Source of the DNA: Cyanophora paradoxa CCMP329
Taxonomy: Eukaryota; Plantae; Glaucophyta
Direction of reading: 5' to 3'
Length of the DNA stretch: 42,215 bases
Assembly (NCBI GenBank): GCA_004431415.1
Contig: QPMI01000446.1
Span: 1 to 42,215 of the forward strand
The notes beneath the pieces are model-generated. The model made no database searches and was not told the origin of the DNA. It was given only the letters and a program-made list of their open reading frames with translations. Position numbers and translations under genes: made by a program. Positions 19,601 to 41,853 of this stretch are shown one piece after another; position 1 is the first letter of the stretch; every line of letters starts with the position of its first letter.

Positions 19601-19728
19601 ACTAGTGGCCCGGCCGCGTTTTGGCGCGCCGGGGGTGCAAGGGGGGAATCTGGATCTAATGAAAGAGTAGTAGTGGCACGAACATGCACGGGGCAGATGT
19701 AGATTGACCCCGGCCCAGCGCGCGCGGC
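16612..19728 (+). CDS. Spliced host F-box + LRR + ankyrin-repeat protein (one gene or two adjacent genes), 3' end abutting the viral element
   Basis: ATG at 16612 plus intron 16628-16742 gives MDSFPDEVLLAIMSNL..VALVNRRLRALSGDPSLW (F-box). LRR-like CPNLTHLSIS, LNASDVSIT, EKLTKLYLR, RLEELDLS. Ankyrin-like IDARLQDGSTLFLSA, LLALGADESKTDARGRSVLHIAAASGRPQAVREILAAHPGIINAR and GCTALLLAI. Confidence 0.65.
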
Positions 19729-19823
19729 ACACATATTGAAAAACGAATTTAAATCCCTCGTTCATCTCGATCGCTTCGCGATCTCGATTCACTCTGGATT
19801 TAAATTCGTTTTTCAATATGTGT
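19729..19823 (-). other. 95-nt terminal hairpin with G.A-only mismatches and GCGAAGC apex (putative telomere)
   Basis: Perfect 28-bp stem 19729-19756/19796-19823, a 12x12 internal segment with 7 mismatches (all G.A on the minus strand), and a GATCGC-GAA-GCGATC cap. Lies exactly at the host/element boundary. Confidence 0.8.
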
Positions 19824-20143
19824 TAATTTAATACTAAAATACATATTTTTCGATTAATTTCTTAAACTTTTTATGCAAACTTTGTATAAAATAATGCAAA
19901 CTTTGTATTAAAAATGAAAACGCGTTTACCAAAATGCATATTTTCGATTAAACTTCGATAGATTCAATTGATCTTATATCGATTGATTATGTACTTTGTT
20001 GTTTACATACAAATCTGCGATAGATTAACATTAAACTGCTTAAAGATCGATATAATTGCGATTAAATTGCATAAATTCGCATAAACTCGATATATCTCTC
20101 ATGTATTGAAGTAGACCACCGCCCATTCTGTATCGAAAAACGC

Positions 20144-20401
20144 AAAAAGTGTCACAGAGTTGCATTGTGTCCAATTGAACAATCGATGAGATTGCTGATG
20201 TACATTTTTGCACCGAAAAAGTGTCACAGAGTTGCATTATCTCCCATTAAACAATCGATTAGATTGCGGGATTTTCTATTGGAATATATCGGAACTGCAT
20301 TATGTCCAATTAAACAATCGATGAGATTGCGGATTTATATTTTAGATCGAAAAAGTGTCACAGAGTTGCATGGTCTCCAATTGAACAATCGATTAGATTG
20401 C
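20144..20401. repeat. Four degenerate ~65-75-bp subterminal direct repeats
   Basis: Core TGCAT..TCCAATTRAACAATCGATKAGATTGC four times; three copies are preceded by AAAAAGTGTCACAGAGT (20144, 20216, 20350). Confidence 0.85.
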
Positions 20402-20433
20402 ATATGTTCTATAAAACAGAATAATTGAATTCA

Positions 20434-20960
20434 AGTGTGACAGGTAGTATTCAAATGATATTCAGTAATAGATATATTTGTTTTTGAGAAAGTCAGTAAG
20501 AGGGGTAGAATGTCTGTGACAGGTGTGACAGGTGTGACAGGTGTTTTCAGAAGTCTGTCATTTTTGAAAAATTTAGAAAGTTTGAAAATAGGTGTCACAC
20601 CTGTCACACCTGTCACACTCAATTAAACTACCTGTCACACCTGGTCTCCTTACCATTTTCAGTAAGACAGAAAGGTATTCATGAAATCGACTATTGTTGG
20701 GTGGATTTTGAAGGTGTCACACCTGTCACATAGACTGTTTTCAGTAAGACAACAATAAATTCTTGAATATCTCAGTAAGAAATAGAGTCTTTTGTTAATT
20801 GGGTGTGACGGGTGTGACAGGTGTGACAGGTGTTTTCAGAAGTCTGTAATTTGTGAGAATTTTAAAAAGTTTGAAAATAGGTGTCACACCTGTCACAGGC
20901 GTCACAGTCAATTAAATAGGTGTCACACCCGATTATCTGACCATTTTCAGTAAGACCATC
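20434..20960. promoter_or_regulatory. Iteron-like array (GGTGTGACA / TGTCACACC), putative replication origin or end-binding region
   Basis: Two blocks 289 bp apart (20515-20640 and 20801-20930), each 3 forward 9-mers, a ~55-bp AT-rich core and 3+1 inverted 9-mers; about 17 copies in total; also about five CAGTAAGA boxes. Confidence 0.6.
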
Positions 20961-20986
20961 TGAAATTCTGAATTTCTCAGTGTCAA

Positions 20987-21388
20987 CTAACTCGGAAATC
21001 GCAATACTCTATGTTTCTCCGATTTCTCCAACCCTGAAAACACACCTGTTATTCTCTCATCTATCTCATGAGATACTCTCGTGGTTTTTCTCTCTGCTTC
21101 TAATCCACAACTGAATATATCAATCGCCAGCATACCTTCATTTGAGTAACAATGAGCAGTGCAGTGGCTCTCATCCAGCAGAAGAACCATTGCAAAACCA
21201 GGAGGAGAAATACCACCATCGAAAATCTCGCAATGCTTGTGAACTACTCGAATACCTTGCTCTTGAATAATAGTTTGTAAGAACTGCATTAACCACCTGG
21301 TCGTTGTCTCCAAGTCTTCCACTCCTACTGCTAATTGGGTTCTGAATTTGTAATCCAGCATCACATGGAAGCCTCGATGAGTATTCAT
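20987..21388 (-). CDS. speD: S-adenosylmethionine decarboxylase proenzyme, small prokaryotic/phage type
   Basis: 133 aa with G.H..LD N-terminus and GFAMVLLLDESHCTAHCY..EGMLAIDIFSCG, containing the E|SH autocleavage site and DIFxCG motif. Confidence 0.9.
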   Translation of the reverse strand: MNTHRGFHVMLDYKFRTQLAVGVEDLETTTRWLMQFLQTIIQEQGIRVVHKHCEIFDGGISPPGFAMVLLLDESHCTAHCYSNEGMLAIDIFSCGLEAERKTTRVSHEIDERITGVFSGLEKSEKHRVLRFPS

Positions 21389-21428
21389 TTATGAATAATT
21401 TAGAAAAATTAAAAACGCGATTGGTAGA

Positions 21429-21578
21429 ATGCGAACCATCTTAGCAAGAGTGCTACCTTATGAGTTGGTGGATATCATTCTGCTGCACTACCACAAGACC
21501 TGTCCAAACTGCTTTGACACATGCATAATCACAAAGGGAAAATGGGGAAAGATCCTCATTTCTCTCTCAAAGATCTAA
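21429..21578 (+). CDS. 49-aa small ORF (not in ORF track) with LPYELVDIIL and CxxC motifs
   Basis: MRTILARVLPYELVDIILLHYHKTCPNCFDTCIITKGKWGKILISLSKI*; fills the gap between two genes, and its stop overlaps the stop of the convergent 90-aa ORF. Confidence 0.5.
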   Translation: MRTILARVLPYELVDIILLHYHKTCPNCFDTCIITKGKWGKILISLSKI

Positions 21579-21847
21579 TCAAAGTACAGTACCACTGGTT
21601 TATCATCTATCACAATTCCTGATGTAGTCTTTTTTCTGTAAGCATGAGAGGATTTCTTGTTGCACTCTCTGCATCCACTTCCCCTTACATGATTAAATGG
21701 GTAGGTTTGGAGGATCTTGTTGCATTTAAGGCATCTAACAGAGACCTTCTCTTGTGCTTTCTTATACACTGTCTCACTATAATCGAATTTAGCATCACCA
21801 TGAACCATCATTGCAGATTCTATGAATTTCTTTGTTTTATCATCCAT
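21575..21847 (-). CDS. Stand-alone Zn-ribbon repeat unit of the type found in viral homing-endonuclease N-termini (DUF723-like)
   Basis: FIESAMMVHGDAKFDYSETVY...VSVRCLKC...PFNHVRGSGCREC matches the FI..A..VHG.KYDY..V.Y....V.I.C..H/C.....P.NHL.G.GC..C pattern; no nuclease domain follows. Confidence 0.75.
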   Translation of the reverse strand: MDDKTKKFIESAMMVHGDAKFDYSETVYKKAQEKVSVRCLKCNKILQTYPFNHVRGSGCRECNKKSSHAYRKKTTSGIVIDDKPVVLYFD

Positions 21848-21872
21848 TCCTCTCTATATATACCTGAGATTT

Positions 21873-22700
21873 CTATGGAGCAGTATCCTGCCCGAAAATG
21901 GGGAAGTATCGATTTGTGCCGTAATATTCTGCATATGTATTCTGTCTTGCAATAGCATCGGTTCTCTCAGCATAGAGAATGCATTTGTAGATACCAAATC
22001 TGGTGGCTCTCACCAAAAACTGGTAATCTTCAAGACCGAAATTCACTCCATGATAAGCAATCCCGAAATTGTCATATGGAGTGATTACAACTGCAATATT
22101 TGGGGTTCCACCCTCTACTTGACAGACAGCATAAACATCTGGTGGAATATCCACGACCACCTTGTAGTGGTCACCAATCTCAACAAGAGAATCAACTACT
22201 GATGTCTGCTCATTCACAACAATTGGGAAGATCTTGATAATATATGGTGCATTCATACTGGGGACATAGGTGCGAATTCTGGTGTTGGGATCAATGGGAT
22301 TGGGTTGATCATTTACGAAAAGAGGCGCACCAACAGCTCCACCAATCCGAAGACCATCACCAATATATGCTCCCCCCGTTTTGCAGTTAATAGCTCCCGA
22401 CCGAGATTCAAAAGAATAAGTAGAAAGAGGATCACCATAACTGTCTGGGTCTCCATAATGGGCAGAAAAGTTCGCATTTGTCACAAGGAGTTTCGTTGTC
22501 TTAACTATACCATTATTTTTATCACATCTGAGTTCCTGCAATCTCAGTTTATGGGTGGAACCAAAGGTATTCATTGTAGGTTGTACTTCTGTGGATTGGA
22601 GACCTTCTACATCATCAAAAGTAGCATGCTGCAAAACGTGATTTGCAGGTGCTGCTAATGAGAGTTGGGGTGTAATAATTCGCTCTACTGGGGCAGCCAT
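21873..22700 (-). CDS. Fibre/spike paralogue 4 (275 aa): shared N-terminal domain plus unrecognised beta-rich head
   Basis: LRLQELRCDKNNGIVKTTKLLVTNAN and GAINCKTGGAYIG align with the three neighbouring paralogues. Confidence 0.65.
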   Translation of the reverse strand: MAAPVERIITPQLSLAAPANHVLQHATFDDVEGLQSTEVQPTMNTFGSTHKLRLQELRCDKNNGIVKTTKLLVTNANFSAHYGDPDSYGDPLSTYSFESRSGAINCKTGGAYIGDGLRIGGAVGAPLFVNDQPNPIDPNTRIRTYVPSMNAPYIIKIFPIVVNEQTSVVDSLVEIGDHYKVVVDIPPDVYAVCQVEGGTPNIAVVITPYDNFGIAYHGVNFGLEDYQFLVRATRFGIYKCILYAERTDAIARQNTYAEYYGTNRYFPIFGQDTAP

Positions 22701-22723
22701 TTTACATTAAAGTAATATATAAT

Positions 22724-23569
22724 TTATGGGGTTGGGTTATCAATCACATCTGGTTCCTGGTAAAACCCTGTTTGAGAAAGAGTATCAGGAGTAACACCTC
22801 TTAGAGCTGAGACAGCAGCTATATCTGTTCTGATACCCATAACTGTAATTGTATATTTTCCAATATCTGTAACAAACAGATCATAGGTGAAATTGTTATT
22901 ATAAACACAGAACCCTGTGCCGAAATGATCATATCCTTGAACACTGAAATTGTATCTGTGACCTGGCTGGTTATTGTTGGCTCTACATAAAGAAAGCATT
23001 GCAGAAGGAATGACCAGCCCTCTCATTACTCTTTTGGTTCCTTCAATCAATTCAGAGTTTTCAAGTGTGACAGTATAACCTTGGTAAAATTGAATAATTG
23101 GCTGTTGTGCAACTGGTATATATAATCGAATTCGTTGTGGGTCTTCAACATTCTGTTCAAGAGTATCTGGGACATCATTGTATGCAATTGATGAGGAGAG
23201 TTGACCTGAAACTCTGCAACCACCACCAATAAATGCTCCACCTGATCTCACAGTTACAGCAGCAGAATTCTTGTCAAAATCGAGGGCTTTCAGGTCTACA
23301 CTGTAAGCATCAGGACCTCCATTAGTGGGTTGGAAGAAGTTCGCATTTGAGACAAGGAGTCGAGTTGTTTTAACCACACCCGAATTCTTGTCTGCTCTCA
23401 GTTCTTTAACTCGAATAATCGAATTCTTATCAAAGGAGTTACCATTGGAATTGGGTCTCTCTGTGGATTCTAAACCACGAACCTCATCATTAACTTCATG
23501 CTGGCGAAAGTGCATAGCAGGGGATCCAAGGGAATATATTGGAAGTTGAACTCGATTATATTCACCCAT
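22724..23569 (-). CDS. Fibre/spike paralogue 3 (~281 aa from ATG)
   Basis: IRVKELRADKNSGVVKTTRLLVSNAN and AAVTVRSGGAFIG; likely start MGEYNR at 23569. Confidence 0.65.
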   Translation of the reverse strand: MGEYNRVQLPIYSLGSPAMHFRQHEVNDEVRGLESTERPNSNGNSFDKNSIIRVKELRADKNSGVVKTTRLLVSNANFFQPTNGGPDAYSVDLKALDFDKNSAAVTVRSGGAFIGGGCRVSGQLSSSIAYNDVPDTLEQNVEDPQRIRLYIPVAQQPIIQFYQGYTVTLENSELIEGTKRVMRGLVIPSAMLSLCRANNNQPGHRYNFSVQGYDHFGTGFCVYNNNFTYDLFVTDIGKYTITVMGIRTDIAAVSALRGVTPDTLSQTGFYQEPDVIDNPTP

Positions 23570-23607
23570 TGCTTCTTTTACTAAGAAGGAAAGAAAAATA
23601 ATGTACA

Positions 23608-23871
23608 CTACTCTTCTGTGACATTGTTATACTCGATGCCTTTCTTTACAGTTCCCCTTTGGAATGCCTGTAATACAATCGCTTCCTTTGAGGTTGGTAT
23701 CTGAACTCCTGATGAGATGCAAGATTGGATCTCTTTCTGAACAATCTCATCAATTGCGATTCTTGCCCTGTTGTGGGCAGCATTATCAATCCAGTCCTGA
23801 ACAGAAGCAGCGCAATATTCCATTCCCAACTTTTCGGTATCAGTCAGAACTACTTGGTATATATTCGACAT
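23608..23871 (-). CDS. 87-aa protein resembling small cyanophage/marine-phage proteins encoded downstream of C1q-type fibres (possible fibre chaperone)
   Basis: YQVVLTDTEKLGMEYCAASVQDWIDNAAHNRARIAIDEIV..IPTSKEAIVLQAFQRGTVK; recalled similarity, directly downstream of a C1q ORF. Confidence 0.6.
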   Translation of the reverse strand: MSNIYQVVLTDTEKLGMEYCAASVQDWIDNAAHNRARIAIDEIVQKEIQSCISSGVQIPTSKEAIVLQAFQRGTVKKGIEYNNVTEE

Positions 23872-23890
23872 TCTAAACTACTTGTAGAAA

Positions 23891-24912
23891 TTAAATTATG
23901 CTCAGCAATTCGCCACTAAACGTTGTGAATTCTGAAATGGAAGTATCAACAGCATAAATAGAGACATTATCCCCGGCTCCAAGTCTGAGTATTGCGCTCA
24001 AAATGATTGTTTTGTTGGTTACTGTTTGTGAGTTGTTTACCCTGAAATTGAATTCTGTTGAAACATTCTGATCATTTACTTTCAGATCTACACTCACAGA
24101 TGAGGTAACAATACTATAAGAATTAAGAGAGAATCTATAATCTCCACTTATAGGCGCTGTGAATTTCCCTTCTACTACATCAAATGAGTTGGTATTATCA
24201 AAGAATTCATGCAACCAATTAGTAAGACGCCCATATACTCCACTTCTTGTTGCTACACCAAACCCAACACAAAATCGAGGTTGGGTTTCTTGCTTCAAAT
24301 AAAAGTTTGCTGCGATTGTAAGACCCCTGCATCAATTCGTGCGACTTCTGTGCTATTGCGTTTCAGAATGAGATCTACATTTGCTCCTGTATCTATTTCA
24401 GGTGTTTGAATCTTTGTGGTTGTGGTCATCACAGGGACTGTATAAGTAGGAACAAAAAGACCACCATTTGCATTCACAACACCTGTAAATGTCGTTTGGC
24501 CTGAAATTGAGACGTTTGCAGCTGAGAGTGTTCCATTCACAAAAGCTCCCGAACCTATCCATGCTCCACCTGATTTAACTACAAGTGCTGCATTATTTTC
24601 TGTCCCATCAAAAGTAACAATCTGTGGTGTGGTCACCCCACCTGCATCATCATAAATAGCTGCATCAGCAACTACACCACCTGTTAACACCTGATTCTTG
24701 TTACTTACGATTAATTGTGTGGTTCTTATTTTTCCAGCATTTCTATCACATCGAATCTCCTTGCATCTGATAATCAAATTTTGAGTAAACGAATCTGCTC
24801 CTGTGGTTTCTGTGCAAATAAACCCGGGAATAGCATCTGTAACTGTGTGGTTCAGTTGATGCAATTTAGGTGCTGCATAACAGAAAACAGGAACTGCAAT
24901 TTGGGTAGCCAT
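23891..24912 (-). CDS. Fibre paralogue 2 with C-terminal C1q domain, split into 205-aa and 135-aa ORFs by one frameshift (~340 aa if joined)
   Basis: N-part IRCKEIRCDRNAGKIRTTQLIVSNKN..ALVVKSGGAWIG; C-part QPRF..FDVVEGKFTAPISGDYRFSL..LRLGAGDNVSIY..TTFSGELL (C1q). One extra G in AGGGGTCT gives DAGGLTIAANFYLKQETQPRF. Confidence 0.75.
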
Positions 24913-24934
24913 CTATAAATTCCCAACAAAAAGT

Positions 24935-25980
24935 TTATAATCTACTGATGAGATGCCCCCCAAAACAGGTAATACCTTGTATTGTAGCATCATATTGCAT
25001 GGACGATGTCCAGGTTTGTATAACATTCACAAATTCGTTCGCATATACAGCAAAAGAAGCCTCCATATGAACACTTCGCCTTCCATTGTAAGTTGAAAAT
25101 TCTTGAACCGATTGAGGGAAAGAGCCAAATCATTCTTTCTAAATGCAACTCTACACTCCCCTGTTGATGAAGCTGTTGACATTTGAACAATGAAGAAGAA
25201 TCTATAAATTCCGGACACAGGTGCTGTAAAGGTGCCTGTGGATAATGTGATATTATTGCTTGCATCCACAAGAGTTCTGTTAAAAGCGAATCTTCTTGCT
25301 GTTGATGTGGTTCCCACAGTAACTGCTGATGTTGAATAATTTACAATACAAAACCGAGGGTGAGGAGCTTTCAGATATTTAATTAGATTTATTGAAGGGG
25401 AAACATTGTTTATGGTTGCTGTAACCACTGCATTTCTCTTGATATTGAGTGCATTCGATGATTCAATTTCAGGTGTGTTTAACATTGTGGAAAAGACACC
25501 AACACCAACTGAAAAACTACTCGCATTATATCCACCCTCAAAATTTATTGGACTCTCAAACATTCCACTTCCAGCATTTAGTATGGATGCTGTTACTGTT
25601 CCATTCACCTTTAATGCCTCTCCAAAGTATGCTCCTCCACTCTTGACTACAAGAGCGGAAGTATTACTTGTGTTACCAAAAGAAACTATCTGTGCTGTGG
25701 TAAATCCACCTACATTATCATATATTGCTGAATCTGGGACTACTTGACCTGCTTGAACCTGATTTTTATTCGAGATAATAATTCCTGTGGTTCTTATCTT
25801 GCCTCCATTCCTATCACATCGAATTTCTTTGACTCTGAGTATATTATTCTCTGTGAAAGAGGTATTACTTGAAGTTTCAGTACAAATATACCCAGGGGTT
25901 GAATCAACTACTCCATGAGAGGTGCTGTGCAGTGATTTGGCTGCAAGTTCATAGTTTGGGATTTCTAATAGAGAGGTCAT
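24935..25980 (-). CDS. Fibre paralogue 1 with C1q domain (left copy has a 1-bp deletion near 25115)
   Basis: Mirror of 32518-33564; one C fewer in TTTCCCC shifts the last ~60 codons. Confidence 0.75.
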
Positions 25981-25999
25981 CTTTATATTAATCAAATAG

Positions 26000-27694
26000 T
26001 TAAATTGCGACAGCAATGTAATGGATTGTTACAGTTTTGGATGAATTATTCATTGCATATGGATCAGTGAAAAGTTCACAAGTGAAATAGTTACTGTAAA
26101 CATTCAACAGGTTCACAGTAAAAATGACGGGAGTTACTTGATAATTTGGTTCTTGTCCTTCATGCCTTACAGTTGCTGTAACAACAGGAGGAGAAGCAAA
26201 GGCATTGGTAAAATAGATAGTAAGATTGAACACATATAGATTATTGTAATTTAAAACAGGAGTAGTGTAAACATACTTACCTGCTTGAATTTTCCCATTA
26301 AAATATGCATTGAGTTGACTGGAAAGATCTGCTTCTGTAATGCATCGACTGATGGTCGCATTATTTGAGGGGTTCATAGCATAGAAATTCCTTGCATATG
26401 CATTTCCACGAACAAGTAAGGTTTTATCAAAGTAATTCTGCGAATTGTGGAAGAACCATGTTTCTTCAAACATAGGTCCTGCTGGTTCTACAATCTGACC
26501 TGATCCTACATACATCGTGTTGTTGGCTCTAATAGTGGTTGCTGTGAATGGATCAAGAGTAGGTCGATCTGTAATATCTCCCCAAAGGTGTGTGTGAGCA
26601 AAATCTGTAATTTGAGACTTAGTATGAGTATGAGCAAAGTCTGTAATCTCACCTTTGGTGTGAGTGTGTGCAAAATCTGTTATCTCACTCTTTACATGGG
26701 TGTGAGCAAAGTCTGTAATCTCTCCTTTGGTGTGAGTGTGTGCAAAATCTGTTATCTGTGACTTTGTGTGAGTGTGTGCGAAATCTGTGATTTCAGATTT
26801 AAAATGAGTGTGAGCGAAATTCGTGATATCTGCTCTGGTGTGGAAGTGAGCAAAATCTGTTATCTGGGATTTGGTGTGAGTGTGTGCAAAATCTATAATT
26901 TCTGCCTTTGTGTGGGTGTGTGATCTATTATTCAGATCAAGGAAACTACCTGAGTATGCAACAGGGTGTAAATTGGATGGGGTGGGTTTATTGAGGAGAT
27001 CATTATAATCTCCTGTGAAAGAGATCGTTTTCAGTTCACCCCTTCCAACATAATCAGAAGGTAGGTCAATCTTAATGGGCATAATAGCTGGATCATCTGG
27101 GATCTCATACTCACCTCCTGGATGTACAACTGGGAAGGTTTGATTACTTTCAGTGTGGACAAAGAAGTTACATGCTGTCACTGTTCCATCAATTATTCCA
27201 CCTGTGAGAGGGAGGTAATCACCTGTCACACCAATATTAATACCTGCAATAATTGTATTCAGTTCTGTTTCATCTATGTAGTTTTGGGCTTGAAGGTAAT
27301 CCTCTGTTACCACTCTTGATATGGTCTCATTGTGAATATTCTTTGCTGCTGCCCTTTGATTGATTTCTAAAACTCCCTCACCAACTCCACCATTATAATT
27401 CGTTTTTATCCATGAGATTTCGCATCTCTTGTAGTCATCTCGATTTCCAATGAGAGCATTGGGTAACAATCTCTCTCTGCTGAATATTAATTTGGGTCTT
27501 GAACTATCTAAGTCACTAACATCAGTTACATTAATTTGGATTGCTGCATCTTTGTCATCATAGTTTGCTGGATCAGATGGTAGAGAGATCAATCCTCCTG
27601 TCATTGGGATGTCATCTGCATAGTAACTGGTTAAATAGATACCTGGTTTGGTGTCCATCAAACCGAAATTTCCGCCTGCTGCAATTATCTGCAT
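26000..27694 (-). CDS. HxH-repeat tail-fibre-like protein, 564 aa (left copy)
   Basis: Same translation as 30804-32498. Confidence 0.8.
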   Translation of the reverse strand: MQIIAAGGNFGLMDTKPGIYLTSYYADDIPMTGGLISLPSDPANYDDKDAAIQINVTDVSDLDSSRPKLIFSRERLLPNALIGNRDDYKRCEISWIKTNYNGGVGEGVLEINQRAAAKNIHNETISRVVTEDYLQAQNYIDETELNTIIAGINIGVTGDYLPLTGGIIDGTVTACNFFVHTESNQTFPVVHPGGEYEIPDDPAIMPIKIDLPSDYVGRGELKTISFTGDYNDLLNKPTPSNLHPVAYSGSFLDLNNRSHTHTKAEIIDFAHTHTKSQITDFAHFHTRADITNFAHTHFKSEITDFAHTHTKSQITDFAHTHTKGEITDFAHTHVKSEITDFAHTHTKGEITDFAHTHTKSQITDFAHTHLWGDITDRPTLDPFTATTIRANNTMYVGSGQIVEPAGPMFEETWFFHNSQNYFDKTLLVRGNAYARNFYAMNPSNNATISRCITEADLSSQLNAYFNGKIQAGKYVYTTPVLNYNNLYVFNLTIYFTNAFASPPVVTATVRHEGQEPNYQVTPVIFTVNLLNVYSNYFTCELFTDPYAMNNSSKTVTIHYIAVAI

Positions 27695-29075
27695 CCTTGT
27701 AGGGGTCTGATGTATAATTCACCCTGCATTTTGGTTCCTGCATCTATTCCTTTGAGATTCAGGTAATATTCATCTAATCTTAATCTCTCTGGTATGATAT
27801 TACTTTGGTAGAGAGTAACACCATGTAAGGTGTCGAAATCATCACCTGCTGATGCGAATTTTGGTTGTTCATCTATTTCGCTCCATTTATGTCTGTGATC
27901 TTCTGGTGGAAACTCTTCTGGTTTTCCATCAATATCACCCCAGTCATGCCTGTGATCCTCTGGTGGGAATTTGTCTGGTTTACCTAATATCTCATCCCAG
28001 TCATGGTTGTGATCCTCTGGTGGAAATCTGGCTGGTTTATTGTTGATCTGCTCCCAATCTGGGAAGAATTCCCAAATCTCTGGGCGAAATCCATCTGGTA
28101 ATAATTCTTCATGGGGTTCATATGGTTGCTCATAATCCACAACTGGTGGTTCGAGACCATCTGCTAAATATTCCTCATGGGGTTCATAATTCTGCTCATA
28201 TTCATACTCTTGTGGATCTAAACCATCTGGTAAATACTCTTCCTCATTGGGGTCATATTGATCATACTCATATTCCTGTGGGTCAAAACCGTCTGGTAGG
28301 TATTCCTCCTCATCTGGGACGAAGTAGTAATCATCAAGCTCCAATATATCGATTTCGGGAGGTAAATATTGCTCATCAATTTGCTTTCTTGGTTCAATTA
28401 TCGGTTTATTTCGAACCTGCTCCCAACTCACAATGTGCTGCCCAAAGGGAACTGTCTCATCTGCTGTATACTCTCTTCCTGGTTGCTTTTTGGGTGTTAA
28501 ATCTGGTGGATCCCATGGAAGAGGAAAGGGAACTGGGACAGGTCCATTAGGTCCATAATATTCAAAGATCTCTCTTATGGTCTTCTCACTTACCAGTTTC
28601 TCACCATTTGCATACACATTGCTTCCATGGATATTTCGCCATTGCCTGGTTCTGATACCAAGATCTTTGGTGTTGGTGACCAAAGGTAAAAGGTGCCTAT
28701 CCATTTCGACAAGGTCTGGGTGTAAATGAACTGTTACTGGTTGAGTGGGGCTACTGTTGACAGTGATAGACGCCTTATTCTTTGCTGTATCACCAGGTAG
28801 TTGGAAACCGAATTGTGCATTAGAAGCCGAATTCGCCACAATATCCCTTGGATAAACATTGTTAGTGAACTCGATTTTGTTGGTTTCTCCATGGGGGGCT
28901 ATCTGTAATATTTCGGGAATTTGTGCAATTGCATTTGATCCTTCATTATAGATTCTTAAACCACTCTGATGCCCACCCTTCTCATTTTGAACATTGAATA
29001 TTAACCTACCACTATCGAATCGAGTTGGAATATCTGGATGGGTTCCACTGGTTTTCAGTTTTCTTGGTCTGCTCC
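27685..29075 (-). pseudogene. 5'-truncated copy of the 550-aa fibre protein (lacks the first ~87 codons and the ATG)
   Basis: Homology to 29161-30813 stops at the inversion breakpoint 29075; no in-frame ATG upstream before a TAG. Confidence 0.8.
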
Positions 29076-29160
29076 CCCACCTGATAATGAGAGAATTACA
29101 CGAAGGGGCATCTTTACTTAACTCAAATTTAATAAATCTCTATAAGTAGAGTAAATTGGG

Positions 29161-30813
29161 ATGAGTTTCAATTATCCAGCAAACCTGCAAACCATTCCTT
29201 CATCAGGAAGAGGGAAGGCAGATAACAAACATGTAAATTTCGATAACTTGACAGCCAGAGGGTCAATCTCAATCGACCATAGTGCAGATGAACCCTCAAA
29301 GACTCACCCAAGAATGCATGCACTTTCAATAAACGAAATGGATCCTGAAAAAGAGGATGTGAGTGTTGCTTTCAGCATGGGGAATGTGAAATCGAATCAG
29401 GTAGCCCAGATTAAAGCAACCAGGAGCAGACCAAGAAAACTGAAAACCAGTGGAACCCATCCAGATATTCCAACTCGATTCGATAGTGGAAGGTTAATAT
29501 TCAATGTTCAAAACGAGAAGGGTGGGCATCAGAGTGGTTTGAGAATCTACAATGAAGGATCAAATGCAATTGCACAAATTCCCGAAATATTACAGATAGC
29601 ACCCCATGCAGAAACCAACAAAATCGAGTTCACTAACAATGTTTATCCACGAGATATTGTGGCGAATTCGGCTTCTAATGCGCAATTCGGTTTCCAACTA
29701 CCTGGTGATACAGCAAAGAATAAGGCGTCTATCACTGTCAACAGTAGCCCCACTCAACCAGTAACAATTCATTTACACCCAGACCTTGTCGAAATGGACA
29801 GGCACCTTTTACCATTGGTAACCAACACCAAAGATCTTGGTATCAGAACCAGGCAATGGCGAAATATCCATGGAAGCAATGTGTATGCAAATGGTGAGAA
29901 ACTGGTAAGTGAGAAGACCATAAGAGAGATCTTTGAATATTATGGACCTAATGGACCTGTCCCAGTTCCCTTTCCTCTTCCATGGGATCCACCAGATTTA
30001 ACACCCAAAAAGCAACCAGGAAGAGAGTATACAGCAGATGAGACAGTTCCCTTTGGGCAGCACATTGTGAGTTGGGAGCAGGTTCGAAATAAACCGATAA
30101 TTGAACCAAGAAAGCAAATTGATGAGCAATATTTACCTCCCGAAATCGATATATTGGAGCTTGATGATTACTACTTCGTCCCAGATGAGGAGGAATACCT
30201 ACCAGACGGTTTTGACCCACAGGAATATGAGTATGATCAATATGACCCCAATGAGGAAGAGTATTTACCAGATGGTTTAGATCCACAAGAGTATGAATAT
30301 GAGCAGAATTATGAACCCCATGAGGAATATTTAGCAGATGGTCTCGAACCACCAGTTGTGGATTATGAGCAACCATATGAACCCCATGAAGAATTATTAC
30401 CAGATGGATTTCGCCCAGAGATTTGGGAATTCTTCCCAGATTGGGAGCAGATCAACAATAAACCAGCCAGATTTCCACCAGAGGATCACAACCATGACTG
30501 GGATGAGATATTAGGTAAACCAGACAAATTCCCACCAGAGGATCACAGGCATGACTGGGGTGATATTGATGGAAAACCAGAAGAGTTTCCACCAGAAGAT
30601 CACAGACATAAATGGAGCGAAATAGATGAACAACCAAAATTCGCATCAGCAGGTGATGATTTCGACACCTTACATGGTGTTACTCTCTACCAAAGTAATA
30701 TCATACCAGAGAGATTAAGATTAGATGAATATTACCTGAATCTCAAAGGAATAGATGCAGGAACCAAAATGCAGGGTGAATTATACATCAGACCCCTACA
30801 AGGATGCAGATAA
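29161..30813 (+). CDS. 550-aa fibre-like protein with acidic repeats and PPEDHxHDW..I..KP repeats
   Basis: Phage-fibre motif HLLPLVTNTKDLGIRTRQWRNIH; four EEYLPDG-type acidic repeats; three 19-aa FPPEDHxHxWxxIxxKP-type repeats. May be one gene with the next ORF. Confidence 0.75.
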   Translation: MSFNYPANLQTIPSSGRGKADNKHVNFDNLTARGSISIDHSADEPSKTHPRMHALSINEMDPEKEDVSVAFSMGNVKSNQVAQIKATRSRPRKLKTSGTHPDIPTRFDSGRLIFNVQNEKGGHQSGLRIYNEGSNAIAQIPEILQIAPHAETNKIEFTNNVYPRDIVANSASNAQFGFQLPGDTAKNKASITVNSSPTQPVTIHLHPDLVEMDRHLLPLVTNTKDLGIRTRQWRNIHGSNVYANGEKLVSEKTIREIFEYYGPNGPVPVPFPLPWDPPDLTPKKQPGREYTADETVPFGQHIVSWEQVRNKPIIEPRKQIDEQYLPPEIDILELDDYYFVPDEEEYLPDGFDPQEYEYDQYDPNEEEYLPDGLDPQEYEYEQNYEPHEEYLADGLEPPVVDYEQPYEPHEELLPDGFRPEIWEFFPDWEQINNKPARFPPEDHNHDWDEILGKPDKFPPEDHRHDWGDIDGKPEEFPPEDHRHKWSEIDEQPKFASAGDDFDTLHGVTLYQSNIIPERLRLDEYYLNLKGIDAGTKMQGELYIRPLQGCR

Positions 30814-32498
30814 TTGCAGCAGGCGGAAATTTCGGTTTGATGGACACCAAACCAGGTATCTATTTAACCAGTTACTATGCAGATGACATCCCAATGACAG
30901 GAGGATTGATCTCTCTACCATCTGATCCAGCAAACTATGATGACAAAGATGCAGCAATCCAAATTAATGTAACTGATGTTAGTGACTTAGATAGTTCAAG
31001 ACCCAAATTAATATTCAGCAGAGAGAGATTGTTACCCAATGCTCTCATTGGAAATCGAGATGACTACAAGAGATGCGAAATCTCATGGATAAAAACGAAT
31101 TATAATGGTGGAGTTGGTGAGGGAGTTTTAGAAATCAATCAAAGGGCAGCAGCAAAGAATATTCACAATGAGACCATATCAAGAGTGGTAACAGAGGATT
31201 ACCTTCAAGCCCAAAACTACATAGATGAAACAGAACTGAATACAATTATTGCAGGTATTAATATTGGTGTGACAGGTGATTACCTCCCTCTCACAGGTGG
31301 AATAATTGATGGAACAGTGACAGCATGTAACTTCTTTGTCCACACTGAAAGTAATCAAACCTTCCCAGTTGTACATCCAGGAGGTGAGTATGAGATCCCA
31401 GATGATCCAGCTATTATGCCCATTAAGATTGACCTACCTTCTGATTATGTTGGAAGGGGTGAACTGAAAACGATCTCTTTCACAGGAGATTATAATGATC
31501 TCCTCAATAAACCCACCCCATCCAATTTACACCCTGTTGCATACTCAGGTAGTTTCCTTGATCTGAATAATAGATCACACACCCACACAAAGGCAGAAAT
31601 TATAGATTTTGCACACACTCACACCAAATCCCAGATAACAGATTTTGCTCACTTCCACACCAGAGCAGATATCACGAATTTCGCTCACACTCATTTTAAA
31701 TCTGAAATCACAGATTTCGCACACACTCACACAAAGTCACAGATAACAGATTTTGCACACACTCACACCAAAGGAGAGATTACAGACTTTGCTCACACCC
31801 ATGTAAAGAGTGAGATAACAGATTTTGCACACACTCACACCAAAGGTGAGATTACAGACTTTGCTCATACTCATACTAAGTCTCAAATTACAGATTTTGC
31901 TCACACACACCTTTGGGGAGATATTACAGATCGACCTACTCTTGATCCATTCACAGCAACCACTATTAGAGCCAACAACACGATGTATGTAGGATCAGGT
32001 CAGATTGTAGAACCAGCAGGACCTATGTTTGAAGAAACATGGTTCTTCCACAATTCGCAGAATTACTTTGATAAAACCTTACTTGTTCGTGGAAATGCAT
32101 ATGCAAGGAATTTCTATGCTATGAACCCCTCAAATAATGCGACCATCAGTCGATGCATTACAGAAGCAGATCTTTCCAGTCAACTCAATGCATATTTTAA
32201 TGGGAAAATTCAAGCAGGTAAGTATGTTTACACTACTCCTGTTTTAAATTACAATAATCTATATGTGTTCAATCTTACTATCTATTTTACCAATGCCTTT
32301 GCTTCTCCTCCTGTTGTTACAGCAACTGTAAGGCATGAAGGACAAGAACCAAATTATCAAGTAACTCCCGTCATTTTTACTGTGAACCTGTTGAATGTTT
32401 ACAGTAACTATTTCACTTGTGAACTTTTCACTGATCCATATGCAATGAATAATTCATCCAAAACTGTAACAATCCATTACATTGCTGTCGCAATTTAA
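30804..32498 (+). CDS. HxH-repeat tail-fibre-like protein with H-type-lectin/gp53-like C-terminus, 564 aa
   Basis: YLPLTGG, FTGDYNDLLNKP, ten 12-aa HTHTKSQITDFA-type repeats (~31577-31936), and C-terminal YFTNAFASPPVVTAT..VTIHYIAV. Confidence 0.8.
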   Translation: MQIIAAGGNFGLMDTKPGIYLTSYYADDIPMTGGLISLPSDPANYDDKDAAIQINVTDVSDLDSSRPKLIFSRERLLPNALIGNRDDYKRCEISWIKTNYNGGVGEGVLEINQRAAAKNIHNETISRVVTEDYLQAQNYIDETELNTIIAGINIGVTGDYLPLTGGIIDGTVTACNFFVHTESNQTFPVVHPGGEYEIPDDPAIMPIKIDLPSDYVGRGELKTISFTGDYNDLLNKPTPSNLHPVAYSGSFLDLNNRSHTHTKAEIIDFAHTHTKSQITDFAHFHTRADITNFAHTHFKSEITDFAHTHTKSQITDFAHTHTKGEITDFAHTHVKSEITDFAHTHTKGEITDFAHTHTKSQITDFAHTHLWGDITDRPTLDPFTATTIRANNTMYVGSGQIVEPAGPMFEETWFFHNSQNYFDKTLLVRGNAYARNFYAMNPSNNATISRCITEADLSSQLNAYFNGKIQAGKYVYTTPVLNYNNLYVFNLTIYFTNAFASPPVVTATVRHEGQEPNYQVTPVIFTVNLLNVYSNYFTCELFTDPYAMNNSSKTVTIHYIAVAI

Positions 32499-32517
32499 CT
32501 ATTTGATTAATATAAAG

Positions 32518-33564
32518 ATGACCTCTCTATTAGAAATCCCAAACTATGAACTTGCAGCCAAATCACTGCACAGCACCTCTCATGGAGTAGTTGATTCAAC
32601 CCCTGGGTATATTTGTACTGAAACTTCAAGTAATACCTCTTTCACAGAGAATAATATACTCAGAGTCAAAGAAATTCGATGTGATAGGAATGGAGGCAAG
32701 ATAAGAACCACAGGAATTATTATCTCGAATAAAAATCAGGTTCAAGCAGGTCAAGTAGTCCCAGATTCAGCAATATATGATAATGTAGGTGGATTTACCA
32801 CAGCACAGATAGTTTCTTTTGGTAACACAAGTAATACTTCCGCTCTTGTAGTCAAGAGTGGAGGAGCATACTTTGGAGAGGCATTAAAGGTGAATGGAAC
32901 AGTAACAGCATCCATACTAAATGCTGGAAGTGGAATGTTTGAGAGTCCAATAAATTTTGAGGGTGGATATAATGCGAGTAGTTTTTCAGTTGGTGTTGGT
33001 GTCTTTTCCACAATGTTAAACACACCTGAAATTGAATCATCGAATGCACTCAATATCAAGAGAAATGCAGTGGTTACAGCAACCATAAACAATGTTTCCC
33101 CTTCAATAAATCTAATTAAATATCTGAAAGCTCCTCACCCTCGGTTTTGTATTGTAAATTATTCAACATCAGCAGTTACTGTGGGAACCACATCAACAGC
33201 AAGAAGATTCGCTTTTAACAGAACTCTTGTGGATGCAAGCAATAATATCACATTATCCACAGGCACCTTTACAGCACCTGTGTCCGGAATTTATAGATTC
33301 TTCTTCATTGTTCAAATGTCAACAGCTTCATCAACAGGGGAGTGTAGAGTTGCATTTAGAAAGAATGATTTGGCTCTTTCCCCTCAATCGGTTCAAGAAT
33401 TTTCAACTTACAATGGAAGGCGAAGTGTTCATATGGAGGCTTCTTTTGCTGTATATGCGAACGAATTTGTGAATGTTATACAAACCTGGACATCGTCCAT
33501 GCAATATGATGCTACAATACAAGGTATTACCTGTTTTGGGGGGCATCTCATCAGTAGATTATAA
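32518..33564 (+). CDS. Fibre paralogue 1 with C-terminal C1q domain (348 aa from ATG)
   Basis: LRVKEIRCDRNGGKIRTTGIIISNKN..ALVVKSGGAYFG; C1q motifs HPRF..FAFNRTLVDASNNITLSTGTFTAPVSGIYRFFF..TCFGGHLI. Confidence 0.8.
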   Translation: MTSLLEIPNYELAAKSLHSTSHGVVDSTPGYICTETSSNTSFTENNILRVKEIRCDRNGGKIRTTGIIISNKNQVQAGQVVPDSAIYDNVGGFTTAQIVSFGNTSNTSALVVKSGGAYFGEALKVNGTVTASILNAGSGMFESPINFEGGYNASSFSVGVGVFSTMLNTPEIESSNALNIKRNAVVTATINNVSPSINLIKYLKAPHPRFCIVNYSTSAVTVGTTSTARRFAFNRTLVDASNNITLSTGTFTAPVSGIYRFFFIVQMSTASSTGECRVAFRKNDLALSPQSVQEFSTYNGRRSVHMEASFAVYANEFVNVIQTWTSSMQYDATIQGITCFGGHLISRL

Positions 33565-33586
33565 ACTTTTTGTTGGGAATTTATAG

Positions 33587-34607
33587 ATGGCTACCCAAAT
33601 TGCAGTTCCTGTTTTCTGTTATGCAGCACCTAAATTGCATCAACTGAACCACACAGTTACAGATGCTATTCCCGGGTTTATTTGCACAGAAACCACAGGA
33701 GCAGATTCGTTTACTCAAAATTTGATTATCAGATGCAAGGAGATTCGATGTGATAGAAATGCTGGAAAAATAAGAACCACACAATTAATCGTAAGTAACA
33801 AGAATCAGGTGTTAACAGGTGGTGTAGTTGCTGATGCAGCTATTTATGATGATGCAGGTGGGGTGACCACACCACAGATTGTTACTTTTGATGGGACAGA
33901 AAATAATGCAGCACTTGTAGTTAAATCAGGTGGAGCATGGATAGGTTCGGGAGCTTTTGTGAATGGAACACTCTCAGCTGCAAACGTCTCAATTTCAGGC
34001 CAAACGACATTTACAGGTGTTGTGAATGCAAATGGTGGTCTTTTTGTTCCTACTTATACAGTCCCTGTGATGACCACAACCACAAAGATTCAAACACCTG
34101 AAATAGATACAGGAGCAAATGTAGATCTCATTCTGAAACGCAATAGCACAGAAGTCGCACGAATTGATGCAGGGGTCTTACAATCGCAGCAAACTTTTAT
34201 TTGAAGCAAGAAACCCAACCTCGATTTTGTGTTGGGTTTGGTGTAGCAACAAGAAGTGGAGTATATGGGCGTCTTACTAATTGGTTGCATGAATTCTTTG
34301 ATAATACCAACTCATTTGATGTAGTAGAAGGGAAATTCACAGCGCCTATAAGTGGAGATTATAGATTCTCTCTTAATTCTTATAGTATTGTTACCTCATC
34401 TGTGAGTGTAGATCTGAAAGTAAATGATCAGAATGTTTCAACAGAATTCAATTTCAGGGTAAACAACTCACAAACAGTAACCAACAAAACAATCATTTTG
34501 AGCGCAATACTCAGACTTGGAGCCGGGATAATGTCTCTATTTATGCTGTTGATACTTCCATTTCAGAATTCACAACGTTTAGTGGCGAATTGCTGAGCAT
34601 AATTTAA
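33587..34607 (+). CDS. Fibre paralogue 2 with C1q domain (right copy; shared frameshift near 34172 plus an arm-specific one near 34525)
   Basis: Mirror of 23891-24912. Confidence 0.7.
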
Positions 34608-34626
34608 TTTCTACAAGTAGTTTAGA

Positions 34627-34890
34627 ATGTCGAATATATACCAAGTAGTTCTGACTGATACCGAAAAGTTGGGAATGGAATATTGCGCTGCTTCTGTTCA
34701 GGACTGGATTGATAATGCTGCCCACAACAGGGCAAGAATCGCAATTGATGAGATTGTTCAGAAAGAGATCCAATCTTGCATCTCATCAGGAGTTCAGATA
34801 CCAACCTCAAAGGAAGCGATTGTATTACAGGCATTCCAAAGGGGAACTGTAAAGAAAGGCATCGAGTATAACAATGTCACAGAAGAGTAG
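34627..34890 (+). CDS. 87-aa cyanophage-like fibre partner protein (right copy)
   Basis: Same translation as 23608-23871. Confidence 0.6.
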   Translation: MSNIYQVVLTDTEKLGMEYCAASVQDWIDNAAHNRARIAIDEIVQKEIQSCISSGVQIPTSKEAIVLQAFQRGTVKKGIEYNNVTEE

Positions 34891-34928
34891 TGTACATTAT
34901 TTTTCTTTCCTTCTTAGTAAAAGAAGCA

Positions 34929-35774
34929 ATGGGTGAATATAATCGAGTTCAACTTCCAATATATTCCCTTGGATCCCCTGCTATGCACTTTCGCCAGCAT
35001 GAAGTTAATGATGAGGTTCGTGGTTTAGAATCCACAGAGAGACCCAATTCCAATGGTAACTCCTTTGATAAGAATTCGATTATTCGAGTTAAAGAACTGA
35101 GAGCAGACAAGAATTCGGGTGTGGTTAAAACAACTCGACTCCTTGTCTCAAATGCGAACTTCTTCCAACCCACTAATGGAGGTCCTGATGCTTACAGTGT
35201 AGACCTGAAAGCCCTCGATTTTGACAAGAATTCTGCTGCTGTAACTGTGAGATCAGGTGGAGCATTTATTGGTGGTGGTTGCAGAGTTTCAGGTCAACTC
35301 TCCTCATCAATTGCATACAATGATGTCCCAGATACTCTTGAACAGAATGTTGAAGACCCACAACGAATTCGATTATATATACCAGTTGCACAACAGCCAA
35401 TTATTCAATTTTACCAAGGTTATACTGTCACACTTGAAAACTCTGAATTGATTGAAGGAACCAAAAGAGTAATGAGAGGGCTGGTCATTCCTTCTGCAAT
35501 GCTTTCTTTATGTAGAGCCAACAATAACCAGCCAGGTCACAGATACAATTTCAGTGTTCAAGGATATGATCATTTCGGCACAGGGTTCTGTGTTTATAAT
35601 AACAATTTCACCTATGATCTGTTTGTTACAGATATTGGAAAATATACAATTACAGTTATGGGTATCAGAACAGATATAGCTGCTGTCTCAGCTCTAAGAG
35701 GTGTTACTCCTGATACTCTTTCTCAAACAGGGTTTTACCAGGAACCAGATGTGATTGATAACCCAACCCCATAA
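34929..35774 (+). CDS. Fibre/spike paralogue 3 (right copy)
   Basis: Same translation as 22724-23569. Confidence 0.65.
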   Translation: MGEYNRVQLPIYSLGSPAMHFRQHEVNDEVRGLESTERPNSNGNSFDKNSIIRVKELRADKNSGVVKTTRLLVSNANFFQPTNGGPDAYSVDLKALDFDKNSAAVTVRSGGAFIGGGCRVSGQLSSSIAYNDVPDTLEQNVEDPQRIRLYIPVAQQPIIQFYQGYTVTLENSELIEGTKRVMRGLVIPSAMLSLCRANNNQPGHRYNFSVQGYDHFGTGFCVYNNNFTYDLFVTDIGKYTITVMGIRTDIAAVSALRGVTPDTLSQTGFYQEPDVIDNPTP

Positions 35775-35797
35775 ATTATATATTACTTTAATGTAAA

Positions 35798-36624
35798 ATG
35801 GCTGCCCCAGTAGAGCGAATTATTACACCCCAACTCTCATTAGCAGCACCTGCAAATCACGTTTTGCAGCATGCTACTTTTGATGATGTAGAAGGTCTCC
35901 AATCCACAGAAGTACAACCTACAATGAATACCTTTGGTTCCACCCATAAACTGAGATTGCAGGAACTCAGATGTGATAAAAATAATGGTATAGTTAAGAC
36001 AACGAAACTCCTTGTGACAAATGCGAACTTTTCTGCCCATTATGGAGACCCAGACAGTTATGGTGATCCTCTTCTACTTATTCTTTTGAATCTCGGTCGG
36101 GAGCTATTAACTGCAAAACGGGGGGAGCATATATTGGTGATGGTCTTCGGATTGGTGGAGCTGTTGGTGCGCCTCTTTTCGTAAATGATCAACCCAATCC
36201 CATTGATCCCAACACCAGAATTCGCACCTATGTCCCAAGTATGAATGCACCATATATTATCAAGATCTTCCCAATTGTTGTGAATGAGCAGACATCAGTA
36301 GTTGATTCTCTTGTTGAGATTGGTGACCACTACAAGGTGGTCGTGGATATTCCACCAGATGTTTATGCTGTCTGTCAAGTAGAGGGTGGAACCCCAAATA
36401 TTGCAGTTGTAATCACTCCATATGACAATTTCGGGATTGCTTATCATGGAGTGAATTTCGGTCTTGAAGATTACCAGTTTTTGGTGAGAGCCACCAGATT
36501 TGGTATCTACAAATGCATTCTCTATGCTGAGAGAACCGATGCTATTGCAAGACAGAATACATATGCAGAATATTACGGCACAAATCGATACTTCCCCATT
36601 TTCGGGCAGGATACTGCTCCATAG
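35798..36624 (+). CDS. Fibre/spike paralogue 4 (right copy, 1-bp deletion near 36072)
   Basis: Mirror of 21873-22700; CCTCTTCTA here versus CCTCTTTCTA in the left arm. Confidence 0.6.
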
Positions 36625-36649
36625 AAATCTCAGGTATATATAGAGAGGA

Positions 36650-36922
36650 ATGGATGATAAAACAAAGAAATTCATAGAATCTGCAATGATGGTTCATGGT
36701 GATGCTAAATTCGATTATAGTGAGACAGTGTATAAGAAAGCACAAGAGAAGGTCTCTGTTAGATGCCTTAAATGCAACAAGATCCTCCAAACCTACCCAT
36801 TTAATCATGTAAGGGGAAGTGGATGCAGAGAGTGCAACAAGAAATCCTCTCATGCTTACAGAAAAAAGACTACATCAGGAATTGTGATAGATGATAAACC
36901 AGTGGTACTGTACTTTGATTAG
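36650..36922 (+). CDS. Stand-alone Zn-ribbon (DUF723-like) protein (right copy)
   Basis: Same translation as 21575-21847. Confidence 0.75.
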   Translation: MDDKTKKFIESAMMVHGDAKFDYSETVYKKAQEKVSVRCLKCNKILQTYPFNHVRGSGCRECNKKSSHAYRKKTTSGIVIDDKPVVLYFD

Positions 36923-37068
36923 ATCTTTGAGAGAGAAATGAGGATCTTTCCCCATTTTCCCTTTGTGATTATGCATGTGTCAAAGCAGTTTGGACAGGTC
37001 TTGTGGTAGTGCAGCAGAATGATATCCACCAACTCATAAGGTAGCACTCTTGCTAAGATGGTTCGCAT
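36919..37068 (-). CDS. 49-aa small ORF (right copy)
   Basis: Mirror of 21429-21578. Confidence 0.5.
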   Translation of the reverse strand: MRTILARVLPYELVDIILLHYHKTCPNCFDTCIITKGKWGKILISLSKI

Positions 37069-37108
37069 TCTACCAATCGCGTTTTTAATTTTTCTAAATT
37101 ATTCATAA

Positions 37109-37509
37109 ATGAATACTCATCGAGGCTTCCATGTGATGCTGGATTACAAATTCAGAACCCAATTAGCAGTAGGAGTGGAAGACTTGGAGACAACGACCAG
37201 GTGGTTAATGCAGTTCTTACAAACTATTATTCAAGAGCAAGGTATTCGAGTAGTTCACAAGCATTGCGAGATTTTCGATGGTGGTATTTCTCCTCCTGGT
37301 TTTGCAATGGTTCTTCTGCTGGATGAGAGCCACTGCACTGCTCATTGTTACTCAAATGAAGGTATGCTGGCGATTGATATATTCAGTTGTGGATTAGAAG
37401 CAGAGAGAAAACCACGAGAGTATCTCATGAGATAGATGAGAGAATAACAGGTGTGTTTTCAGGGTTGGAGAAATCGGAGAAACATAGAGTATTGCGATTT
37501 CCGAGTTAG
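37109..37509 (+). CDS. speD: S-adenosylmethionine decarboxylase (right copy, 1-bp deletion in an A run near 37410)
   Basis: Mirror of 20987-21388 with ESH and DIFSCG motifs. Confidence 0.85.
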
Positions 37510-37534
37510 TTGACACTGAGAAATTCAGAATTTC

Positions 37535-38349
37535 AGATGGTCTTACTGAAATGGTCAGATAATCGGGTGTGACACCTATTTAATTGACTGTGACGCCTGT
37601 GACAGGTGTGACACCTATTTTCAAACTTTTTAAAATTCTCACAAATTACAGACTTCTGAAAACACCTGTCACACCTGTCACACCCGTCACACCCAATTAA
37701 CAAAGACTCTATTTCTTACTGAGATATTCAAGATTTATTGTTGTCTTACTGAAAACAGTCTATGTGACAGGTGTGACACCTTCAAAATCCACCCAACAAT
37801 AGTCGATTTCATGAATACCTTTCTGTCTTACTGAAAATGGTAAGGAGACCAGGTGTGACAGGTAGTTTAATTGAGTGTGACAGGTGTGACAGGTGTGACA
37901 CCTATTTTCAAACTTTCTAAATTTTTCAAAAATGACAGACTTCTGAAAACACCTGTCACACCTGTCACACCTGTCACAGACATTCTACCCCTCTTACTGA
38001 CTTTCTCAAAAACAAATATATCTATTACTGAATATCATTTGAATACTACCTGTCACACTTGAATTCAATTATTCTGTTTTATAGAACATATGCAATCTAA
38101 TCGATTGTTCAATTGGAGACCATGCAACTCTGTGACACTTTTTCGATCTAAAATATAAATCCGCAATCTCATCGATTGTTTAATTGGACATAATGCAGTT
38201 CCGATATATTCCAATAGAAAATCCCGCAATCTAATCGATTGTTTAATGGGAGATAATGCAACTCTGTGACACTTTTTCGGTGCAAAAATGTACATCAGCA
38301 ATCTCATCGATTGTTCAATTGGACACAATGCAACTCTGTGACACTTTTT
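37535..38349. repeat. Mirror copy of the iteron-like array and ~70-bp subterminal repeats
   Basis: Reverse complement of 20144-20960. Confidence 0.85.
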
Positions 38350-38669
38350 GCGTTTTTCGATACAGAATGGGCGGTGGTCTACTTCAATACATGAGAGATA
38401 TATCGAGTTTATGCGAATTTATGCAATTTAATCGCAATTATATCGATCTTTAAGCAGTTTAATGTTAATCTATCGCAGATTTGTATGTAAACAACAAAGT
38501 ACATAATCAATCGATATAAGATCAATTGAATCTATCGAAGTTTAATCGAAAATATGCATTTTGGTAAACGCGTTTTCATTTTTAATACAAAGTTTGCATT
38601 ATTTTATACAAAGTTTGCATAAAAAGTTTAAGAAATTAATCGAAAAATATGTATTTTAGTATTAAATTA

Positions 38670-38764
38670 ACACATATTGAAAAACGAATTTAAATCCAGA
38701 GTGAATCGAGATCGCGAAGCGATCGAGATGAACGAGGGATTTAAATTCGTTTTTCAATATGTGT
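38670..38764 (+). other. Terminal hairpin, right copy (G.A strand is the + strand here)
   Basis: ACACATATTGAAAAACGAATTTAAATCC-AGAGTGAATCGA-GATCGC-GAA-GCGATC-GAGATGAACGAG-GGATTTAAATTCGTTTTTCAATATGTGT. Confidence 0.8.
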
Positions 38765-41700: not shown

Positions 41701-41853
41701 ATGATAGCGAGGAGGACTTCATCTGCGCACGAAATGTGCCATGTATGATCGCGAGCACCGAAATGTGCCATATGCATTAAATGCGAAAGCCGTCGGCGCA
41801 TTGCAATCATGATCACCAGCGGGAGATTTTCGATTACCAGGGAAGGAGTCCAT
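38765..41853 (-). pseudogene. Mirror copy of the F-box/LRR/ankyrin gene with many 1-bp deletions (probably low-quality consensus)
   Basis: Reverse complement of 16612-19728 with more than 20 net missing bases, judged from the drift in mirror coordinate sums. Confidence 0.6.

Follow-up and report, generated by a model that had tools for sequence, protein, structure and literature searches.

The closest described relatives of the DNA analysed here are the Polinton-like viruses (PLVs) integrated in protist genomes. In the sections of PMC12220804 available to us, protist PLVs are described with phage-like fibre genes that carry phage-tail repeats, one protein of a Cyanophora paradoxa PLV combines PTR with a C-terminal H-lectin, and patatin-like phospholipase genes are placed in glaucophyte and rhizarian PLVs. 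For multi-copy elements of viral origin, the accessible part of Bellas et al. 2023 (PMC10120064) reports that short reads from near-identical viral copies pile up and generate a false consensus, SNVs and frameshifts. Fold-back artefacts of long reads, as treated in the excerpts of PMC12870357 and PMC6218980 at hand, convert an inverted copy of the same locus into a false inverted duplication; the excerpt of PMC12870357 defines the artefact as a turn onto the opposite strand, of at most 200 bp and close to the middle of the read, and describes PacBio HiFi data as virtually free of it. Genuine fold-back inverted duplications have also been reported, and those in the available portion of Hermetz et al. 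2014 (PMC3907307) have spacers of at least 766 bp and short inverted microhomologies (2-8 bp) at their edges.

Our study concerns a stretch of 42,215 nucleotides from C. paradoxa CCMP329 (contig QPMI01000446.1), here called the window, in which self-alignment and a full arm-against-arm alignment identified two inverted arms of 12.8 kb: the left arm at 16246-29075 (minus strand), whose reverse complement matches the right arm at 29423-42215 (plus strand) with 99.5% identity, the whole alignment holding 18 substitutions and 46 indels. Between them lies a spacer of 347 bp (29076-29422), made up of a natural intergenic region and the 5' part of the gene at the centre, of which no second copy was found within the window. 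From the outside inwards, the arms contain 3.4 kb of GC-rich host DNA, an AT-rich repeat, hairpins and a virus-like element of about 8.6 kb with 39.5% GC (0.395, versus approximately 0.575 in the host DNA), severed at 29075 in the left arm; the right arm, an inverted copy of the left with a consensus of low quality, extends as far as the window does and stops within a G-rich tract. The host gene stretch (16205-19601, plus strand) matches F-box-like and ankyrin families in Pfam and is present in both arms. An interpretation of the arms as terminal inverted repeats was ruled out by the genes and host DNA inside them. In addition, positions 7733-14741 hold about 12 tandem copies of a 585-bp unit (98.8-99.5% identity) that encode fibronectin type III domains and close a long intron-containing host gene; the copy number and frameshifts of this array may likewise depend on assembly.

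By its gene content, the element looks like an endogenous PLV. It resembles the endogenous PLVs in the available sections of PMC12220804 in its phage-tail-repeat fibre genes and differs from them in that capsid, packaging ATPase, polymerase and integrase genes are absent from the window. Among the open reading frames scanned with Pfam and PHROGs, no PLV capsid (double jelly-roll major, or minor) or packaging ATPase was found, the element being severed at 29071, and no PLV replicase (pPolB, primase-helicase) or integrase (rve, tyrosine recombinase) was found in its 8.6 kb. The same two collections gave no Nucleocytoviricota core gene in the window. PLVs are delimited as elements of 14-40 kb with terminal inverted repeats and sometimes a target-site duplication; the window contains only one candidate element end, a pair of imperfect hairpins that carry 9-mer repeats (20500-20980). 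The shift in GC against the host and the existence of many related, non-identical copies are as expected of a PLV, and so are matches to PHROGs tail-fibre families, which are typical of PLVs without defining them.

The centre gene (29161-30813, plus strand) encodes 550 amino acids of a fibre-like protein with acidic and phage-tail-type repeats, and a copy cut at its 5' end lies in the left arm (27685-29075, minus strand). Its PHROGs matches are tail-fibre families (best E 2e-10), its 14 homologues match 9-18% of the query only, and no match was found in viral contigs. Another frame of 572 amino acids with His-Thr-His repeats (26000-27718, minus strand; mirror 30780-32498) matches PTR (PF12789, E 4.9e-5) and, at its C terminus, H-lectin (PF09458, E 0.0099), both below the curated cut-off. 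Four paralogous genes (21873-26028, minus strand, with frameshifts at about 24323 and 25115) have in common an N-terminal domain of about 120 amino acids, and C1q domains (Pfam, above cut-off) lie downstream of two of them. This N-terminal domain is unannotated and is joined to different C-termini, C1q and others, which makes it a candidate fibre-anchoring domain. A profile of the four paralogues retrieved seven relatives among 1.84 billion proteins; the named ones (three of the seven clusters) are all from C. paradoxa, on many contigs and at 23-28% identity, and they may be taken as a lead to an algal or protist host, not as an identification of the source. The AlphaFold model of the 281-amino-acid paralogue has a pLDDT of 40, and none of the candidates held up in the paralogue alignments (0 of 72 and 0 of 38 in viral contigs, 0 of 257 in metagenomes). 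A small zinc-finger-like open reading frame is also part of the element.

The element also carries a gene for S-adenosylmethionine decarboxylase (AdoMetDC; 20987-21388, minus strand; PF02675, E 6e-11), for which 0 of 41 candidates in viral contigs and 158 of 424 in metagenomes were accepted, and 80 loci were kept. No other element gene was found beside it at E 1e-3 in these 80 loci, for four of which open reading frames were listed. In this respect the element departs from the PLVs: the best AdoMetDC relative with context (50% identity) lies on a giant-virus contig, L001, that encodes Capsid_NCLDV (E 9e-64). Three GC-rich giant-virus contigs, L001, L002 and L003, hold an AdoMetDC clade 46-50% identical to that of the element, beside Erv1/Alr and RNase III genes; genes may have been exchanged between giant viruses and the element.

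Next to the host DNA lies an AT-rich multi-copy repeat (19602-20430, minus strand) of high contig depth, the outer end of which resembles the 3' end of a Helitron. Helitrons are marked by a 3' hairpin followed by CTRR, insertion before a T, a 5' TC terminus and a RepHel gene. At 19602-19640 (minus strand) we found a GC-rich hairpin and CTAG followed by a host T, which agrees with the 3' marks; by eye, no clear 5' end was seen near 20430, and the sole open reading frame there has no Pfam match. This repeat is oriented like all the genes of the element and has a 95-bp hairpin (19729-19823) and 135-bp repeats inside; it may be a transposon of its own or may close the viral unit in every copy. Rfam gave no matches.

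Special attention was given to the substitutions between the arms. The earlier note on this DNA had reported 13 mostly silent differences next to the centre, and our full alignment bears this out: 13 of the 18 substitutions are confined to 29490-29820 (plus strand; mirror 28678-29008), at distances of 68-398 bp from the spacer, so an even spread along the arms is refuted. All 12 codon pairs that the note listed are correct. Read in frame with the centre gene, the 12 changed codons include 10 silent ones (P = 1.3e-5) and the 13 changed bases 11 (P = 3.4e-6), against an expectation of 22%, and dN/dS between the two tracts is approximately 0.05, uncorrected. Sequencing error and neutral decay as sources of the 13 changes were rejected because of this silent bias. 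The remaining five substitutions (36237, 41868, 42168, 42181 and 42182) adjoin homopolymers or indels. Also as the note had it, the outer arms are nearly identical save for small indels: the 3,559 bp beyond the tract show no mismatch, with the 46 indels thereafter, and the tract ends somewhere about 398-490 bp away from the spacer.

Sequence from the window, in whole or in part, was found in 20 of the 24 listed sequencing runs, and 16 of them contain at least half of its words, all being filed under a single organism label; there were no RNA runs among them, which counts neither for nor against any reading. In four short-read runs, the contigs matching positions 19000-29422 numbered 2,212, 2,323, 1,462 and 2,535. 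The 2,212 contigs of run X1 fall into identity classes of 99% and above (688), 95-99% (570), 90-95% (616) and below 90% (338). The host flank is a single contig with the lowest depth (188 in X1, 81 in X2 and 251 in X12), and in X1 depths of about 950-2,800 are attained by individual contigs of the element, contig depth being a rough sign of multiplicity and no measure of copy number. We identified 909 variant places, and the 40 best supported comprise 27 coding places outside the tract, three in the tract and 10 non-coding ones; among these 40, a non-random sample, 20 of the 27 coding variants outside the tract are silent. The element thus belongs to a family that is deep and polymorphic and whose variation is silent-biased, as the note had anticipated in speaking of related copies under purifying selection. 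Since the silent bias occurs throughout the family, it is a property of the family and nothing specific to the junction.

Contig depth across 23872-25611 is about tenfold below that of the neighbouring genes, as a rough guide, and this block may belong to a subfamily of copies only. Loose contig ends at 28668, 28760, 21205 and 21874 are common to three or four of the four runs, and one at 21105 occurs in two; they mark sites beyond which the sequence of other copies is dissimilar, which suggests modular exchange within the family. The distance between the end at 28668 and the outer limit of the tract is 10 bp.

Both sets of alleles come from this family pool. The right-arm alleles at 28816, 28846 and 28848 were found in all four runs, and the left allele at 29008 in X1, X2 and X12, the X2 copy being on a contig that runs naturally into the spacer. 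One contig of a further run (X5 record 32) combines left alleles at five further sites with those three right alleles, the phase of such contigs being reliable to about 31 bp only. Nine of the 13 sites could be resolved on the main contig path, which the left tract matches at six and the right tract at three, so neither tract equals the main path. Polishing to a simple family majority was rejected, given that the right tract agrees with the main path at only three of the nine. Outside the tract, both arms have letters in common that are absent from the examined contigs, for example at 28594 and 25882.

The join between left arm and spacer has the geometry of a fold-back. In all four runs, the natural path connects 29075 with 29422 on opposite strands, which is the arrangement of the right arm; consequently, the spacer is naturally continuous with the right arm alone. 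Contigs of the upstream region stop aligning at 29071, which indicates that the join used a 5-bp match (29071-29075, inverted partner 29423-29427) whose chance for a given join is about 0.001. In element coordinates, 352 bp separate the two breakpoints, and the join matches the upstream gene to the centre gene, which lies on the opposite strand. The join also cuts a divergent open reading frame (29071-29111, minus strand) after its first 13 codons; loose ends read by hand show that in other copies this frame extends into a GGGxRG-type motif, and we presume the product to be patatin-like. No contig bridging 29075|29076 was found in X1, X2 or X12 (24 of 42 pieces shown), an absence that is no proof since low-depth joins survive unevenly (that at 21646-21743 is present in two of four runs) and contigs drop rare paths. 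In these three runs, the bin depths over the join are fully accounted for by contigs that do not bridge it.

The right arm is a weakly supported sequence with uncorrected small deletions. All 46 indels are of 1-2 bp and lie past the identical 3,559 bp, and 41 of them are bases absent from the right arm; 37 fall in 3.3 kb of host DNA versus nine in 9.5 kb of AT-rich DNA, a density about 12 times higher. Over the host stretch 19000-19626, the short-read contigs of X1, X2 and X12 fit the left arm with no differences and no gaps, and they contradict all eight right-arm indels. Contigs likewise contradict the frameshifts at about 25115 (left arm) and 24323 (both arms). The passages of PMC8812927 available to us note that errors can persist in one copy of a repeat when reads prefer the clean copy.

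Based on these observations, the mirror structure is likely an assembly error, and the explanation that we favour, with somewhat better than even confidence, is a fold-back or layout chimera of long reads whose centre-side tract took on alleles of sister copies during consensus building or polishing. A sheared or broken molecule would have folded back on the 5-bp match to give an arm-loop-arm structure or, alternatively, the assembler would have reversed along the same locus at the contig end. A pure fold-back gives identical arms, and the 13 differences therefore require a second step. Reads lying wholly within the arms would fit both equally and would impose the same letters on the two, and read pairs of which one mate falls within the unique spacer would fit the right arm only, up to about one fragment length. 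If the pool anchored in the spacer derives from different copies, other alleles would appear over some 400 bp and nowhere else. In a model of the geometry only, the share of coverage that spacer-anchored pairs provide at a distance of 400 bp is 15-33% for 450-550-bp fragments and less than 2% for 300-350-bp fragments; at 600 bp the share of the 450-550-bp fragments is 0-5%. The length of the tract may thus be called compatible with paired-end reach, which is not proof.

On this reading, the silent bias reflects selection on the viral family and not a local event. This bears on the earlier argument that a fold-back read cannot create silent-biased changes, which holds for the read by itself and fails for a fold-back contig polished with sister copies. 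The two haplotypes meeting at the centre of the palindrome were more likely brought together in assembly than in the cell. The situation resembles that of the elements in the accessible part of PMC10120064, which are also multi-copy, near-identical and GC-shifted viral insertions whose sister-copy reads aggregate, but here the effect would be one-sided, extend over about 400 bp and be bounded by the spacer of a palindrome, a geometry not described in that part. The likeness to the fold-back artefacts in the excerpts of PMC12870357 and PMC6218980 lies in the inverted copy of a single locus, which gives rise to a false inverted duplication; the turn at this locus skips 347 bp and so exceeds the 200-bp default of PMC12870357, and the allele tract needs an extra consensus step. 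It is important to consider that a right tract differing from the family majority is something that simple polishing would not predict, and that the case for a chimera is built on contigs, from which we infer the fold-back read and the polishing step.

The alternative that survives best, which we nevertheless consider unlikely, is a real fold-back palindrome: a break within the integrated virus, primed by the 5-bp match and then replicated, with the spacer-side tract converted afterwards from another copy of the family or with priming on an older, already diverged inverted pair. Gene-conversion tracts can equal this tract in length. The single-copy spacer with inverted 5-bp microhomology at its edge is what real fold-back inverted duplications exhibit, including those in the available portion of Hermetz et al. 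2014 (PMC3907307), from which the locus departs in its shorter spacer (347 bp versus at least 766 bp) and in the divergence of its arms over 398 bp; in addition, the portion of PMC10164571 at hand describes diverged inverted repeats as drivers of fold-backs in yeast. Donor copies are plentiful, neither arm tract represents the family majority, and the poor quality of the right arm could be a mere effect of the contig end. Against a real palindrome stand the need for two events and the missing bridge across the join in three of three runs, although such a hole proves nothing. Moreover, a 4,919-bp contig ending at 19626 (X12 record 9), if collinear, would pass 16246 unbroken, and the exit that a second arm should have there was not seen in that run.

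Slightly less probable still is a true join between a truncated copy of the element and a second, inverted copy, after which the assembler jumped to the reverse strand of the first copy some 400 bp on. This is where the earlier suggestion that the assembler merged two loci now stands: its appeal to the assembly agrees in spirit with the chimera that we prefer, and a mere merger of two loci survives as this doubtful rival. Such a join would yield two haplotypes directly, together with a right arm that is chimeric and backed by few reads, and copies that are 95-99% alike are common. However, breakpoints no more than 352 bp apart would be expected of two independent copies in only 3-5% of cases (for an assumed element of 15-25 kb), long reads crossing the join should hold the alleles of the second copy for kilobases rather than 400 bp, and no contig bridges the join here either, with the same reservation that absence is no proof.

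Finally, two independent viral insertions, nested or adjacent, with arms homogenised later can scarcely be credited: the silent-biased differences do require two functional sources, but the 3.4 kb of host gene DNA and the adjoining repeat present in both arms mean one locus present twice, independent insertions having no common flank, and the host flank is one contig of lowest depth, unlike a multi-copy mobile unit. The note's idea of two viral haplotypes meeting with homogenised arms is set aside on the same host DNA, on the alleles that both arms hold and the contigs lack, and on the fold-back geometry.

If the chimera holds, haplotypes, frameshifts and inverted repeats of multi-copy endogenous viruses in genome assemblies can be chimeras, and a contig folded back in this way could be mistaken for an entire element bearing long terminal repeats. 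If, on the contrary, the palindrome is real, the locus would directly exemplify the remodelling of a host chromosome through recombination among integrated copies of the virus; in this improbable event, integrated copies would serve, at this one locus, both as chromosome break points and as donors of fibre-gene alleles. The family itself is as expected of Polinton-like viruses, a known kind, that are or recently were active in a host of protist type.
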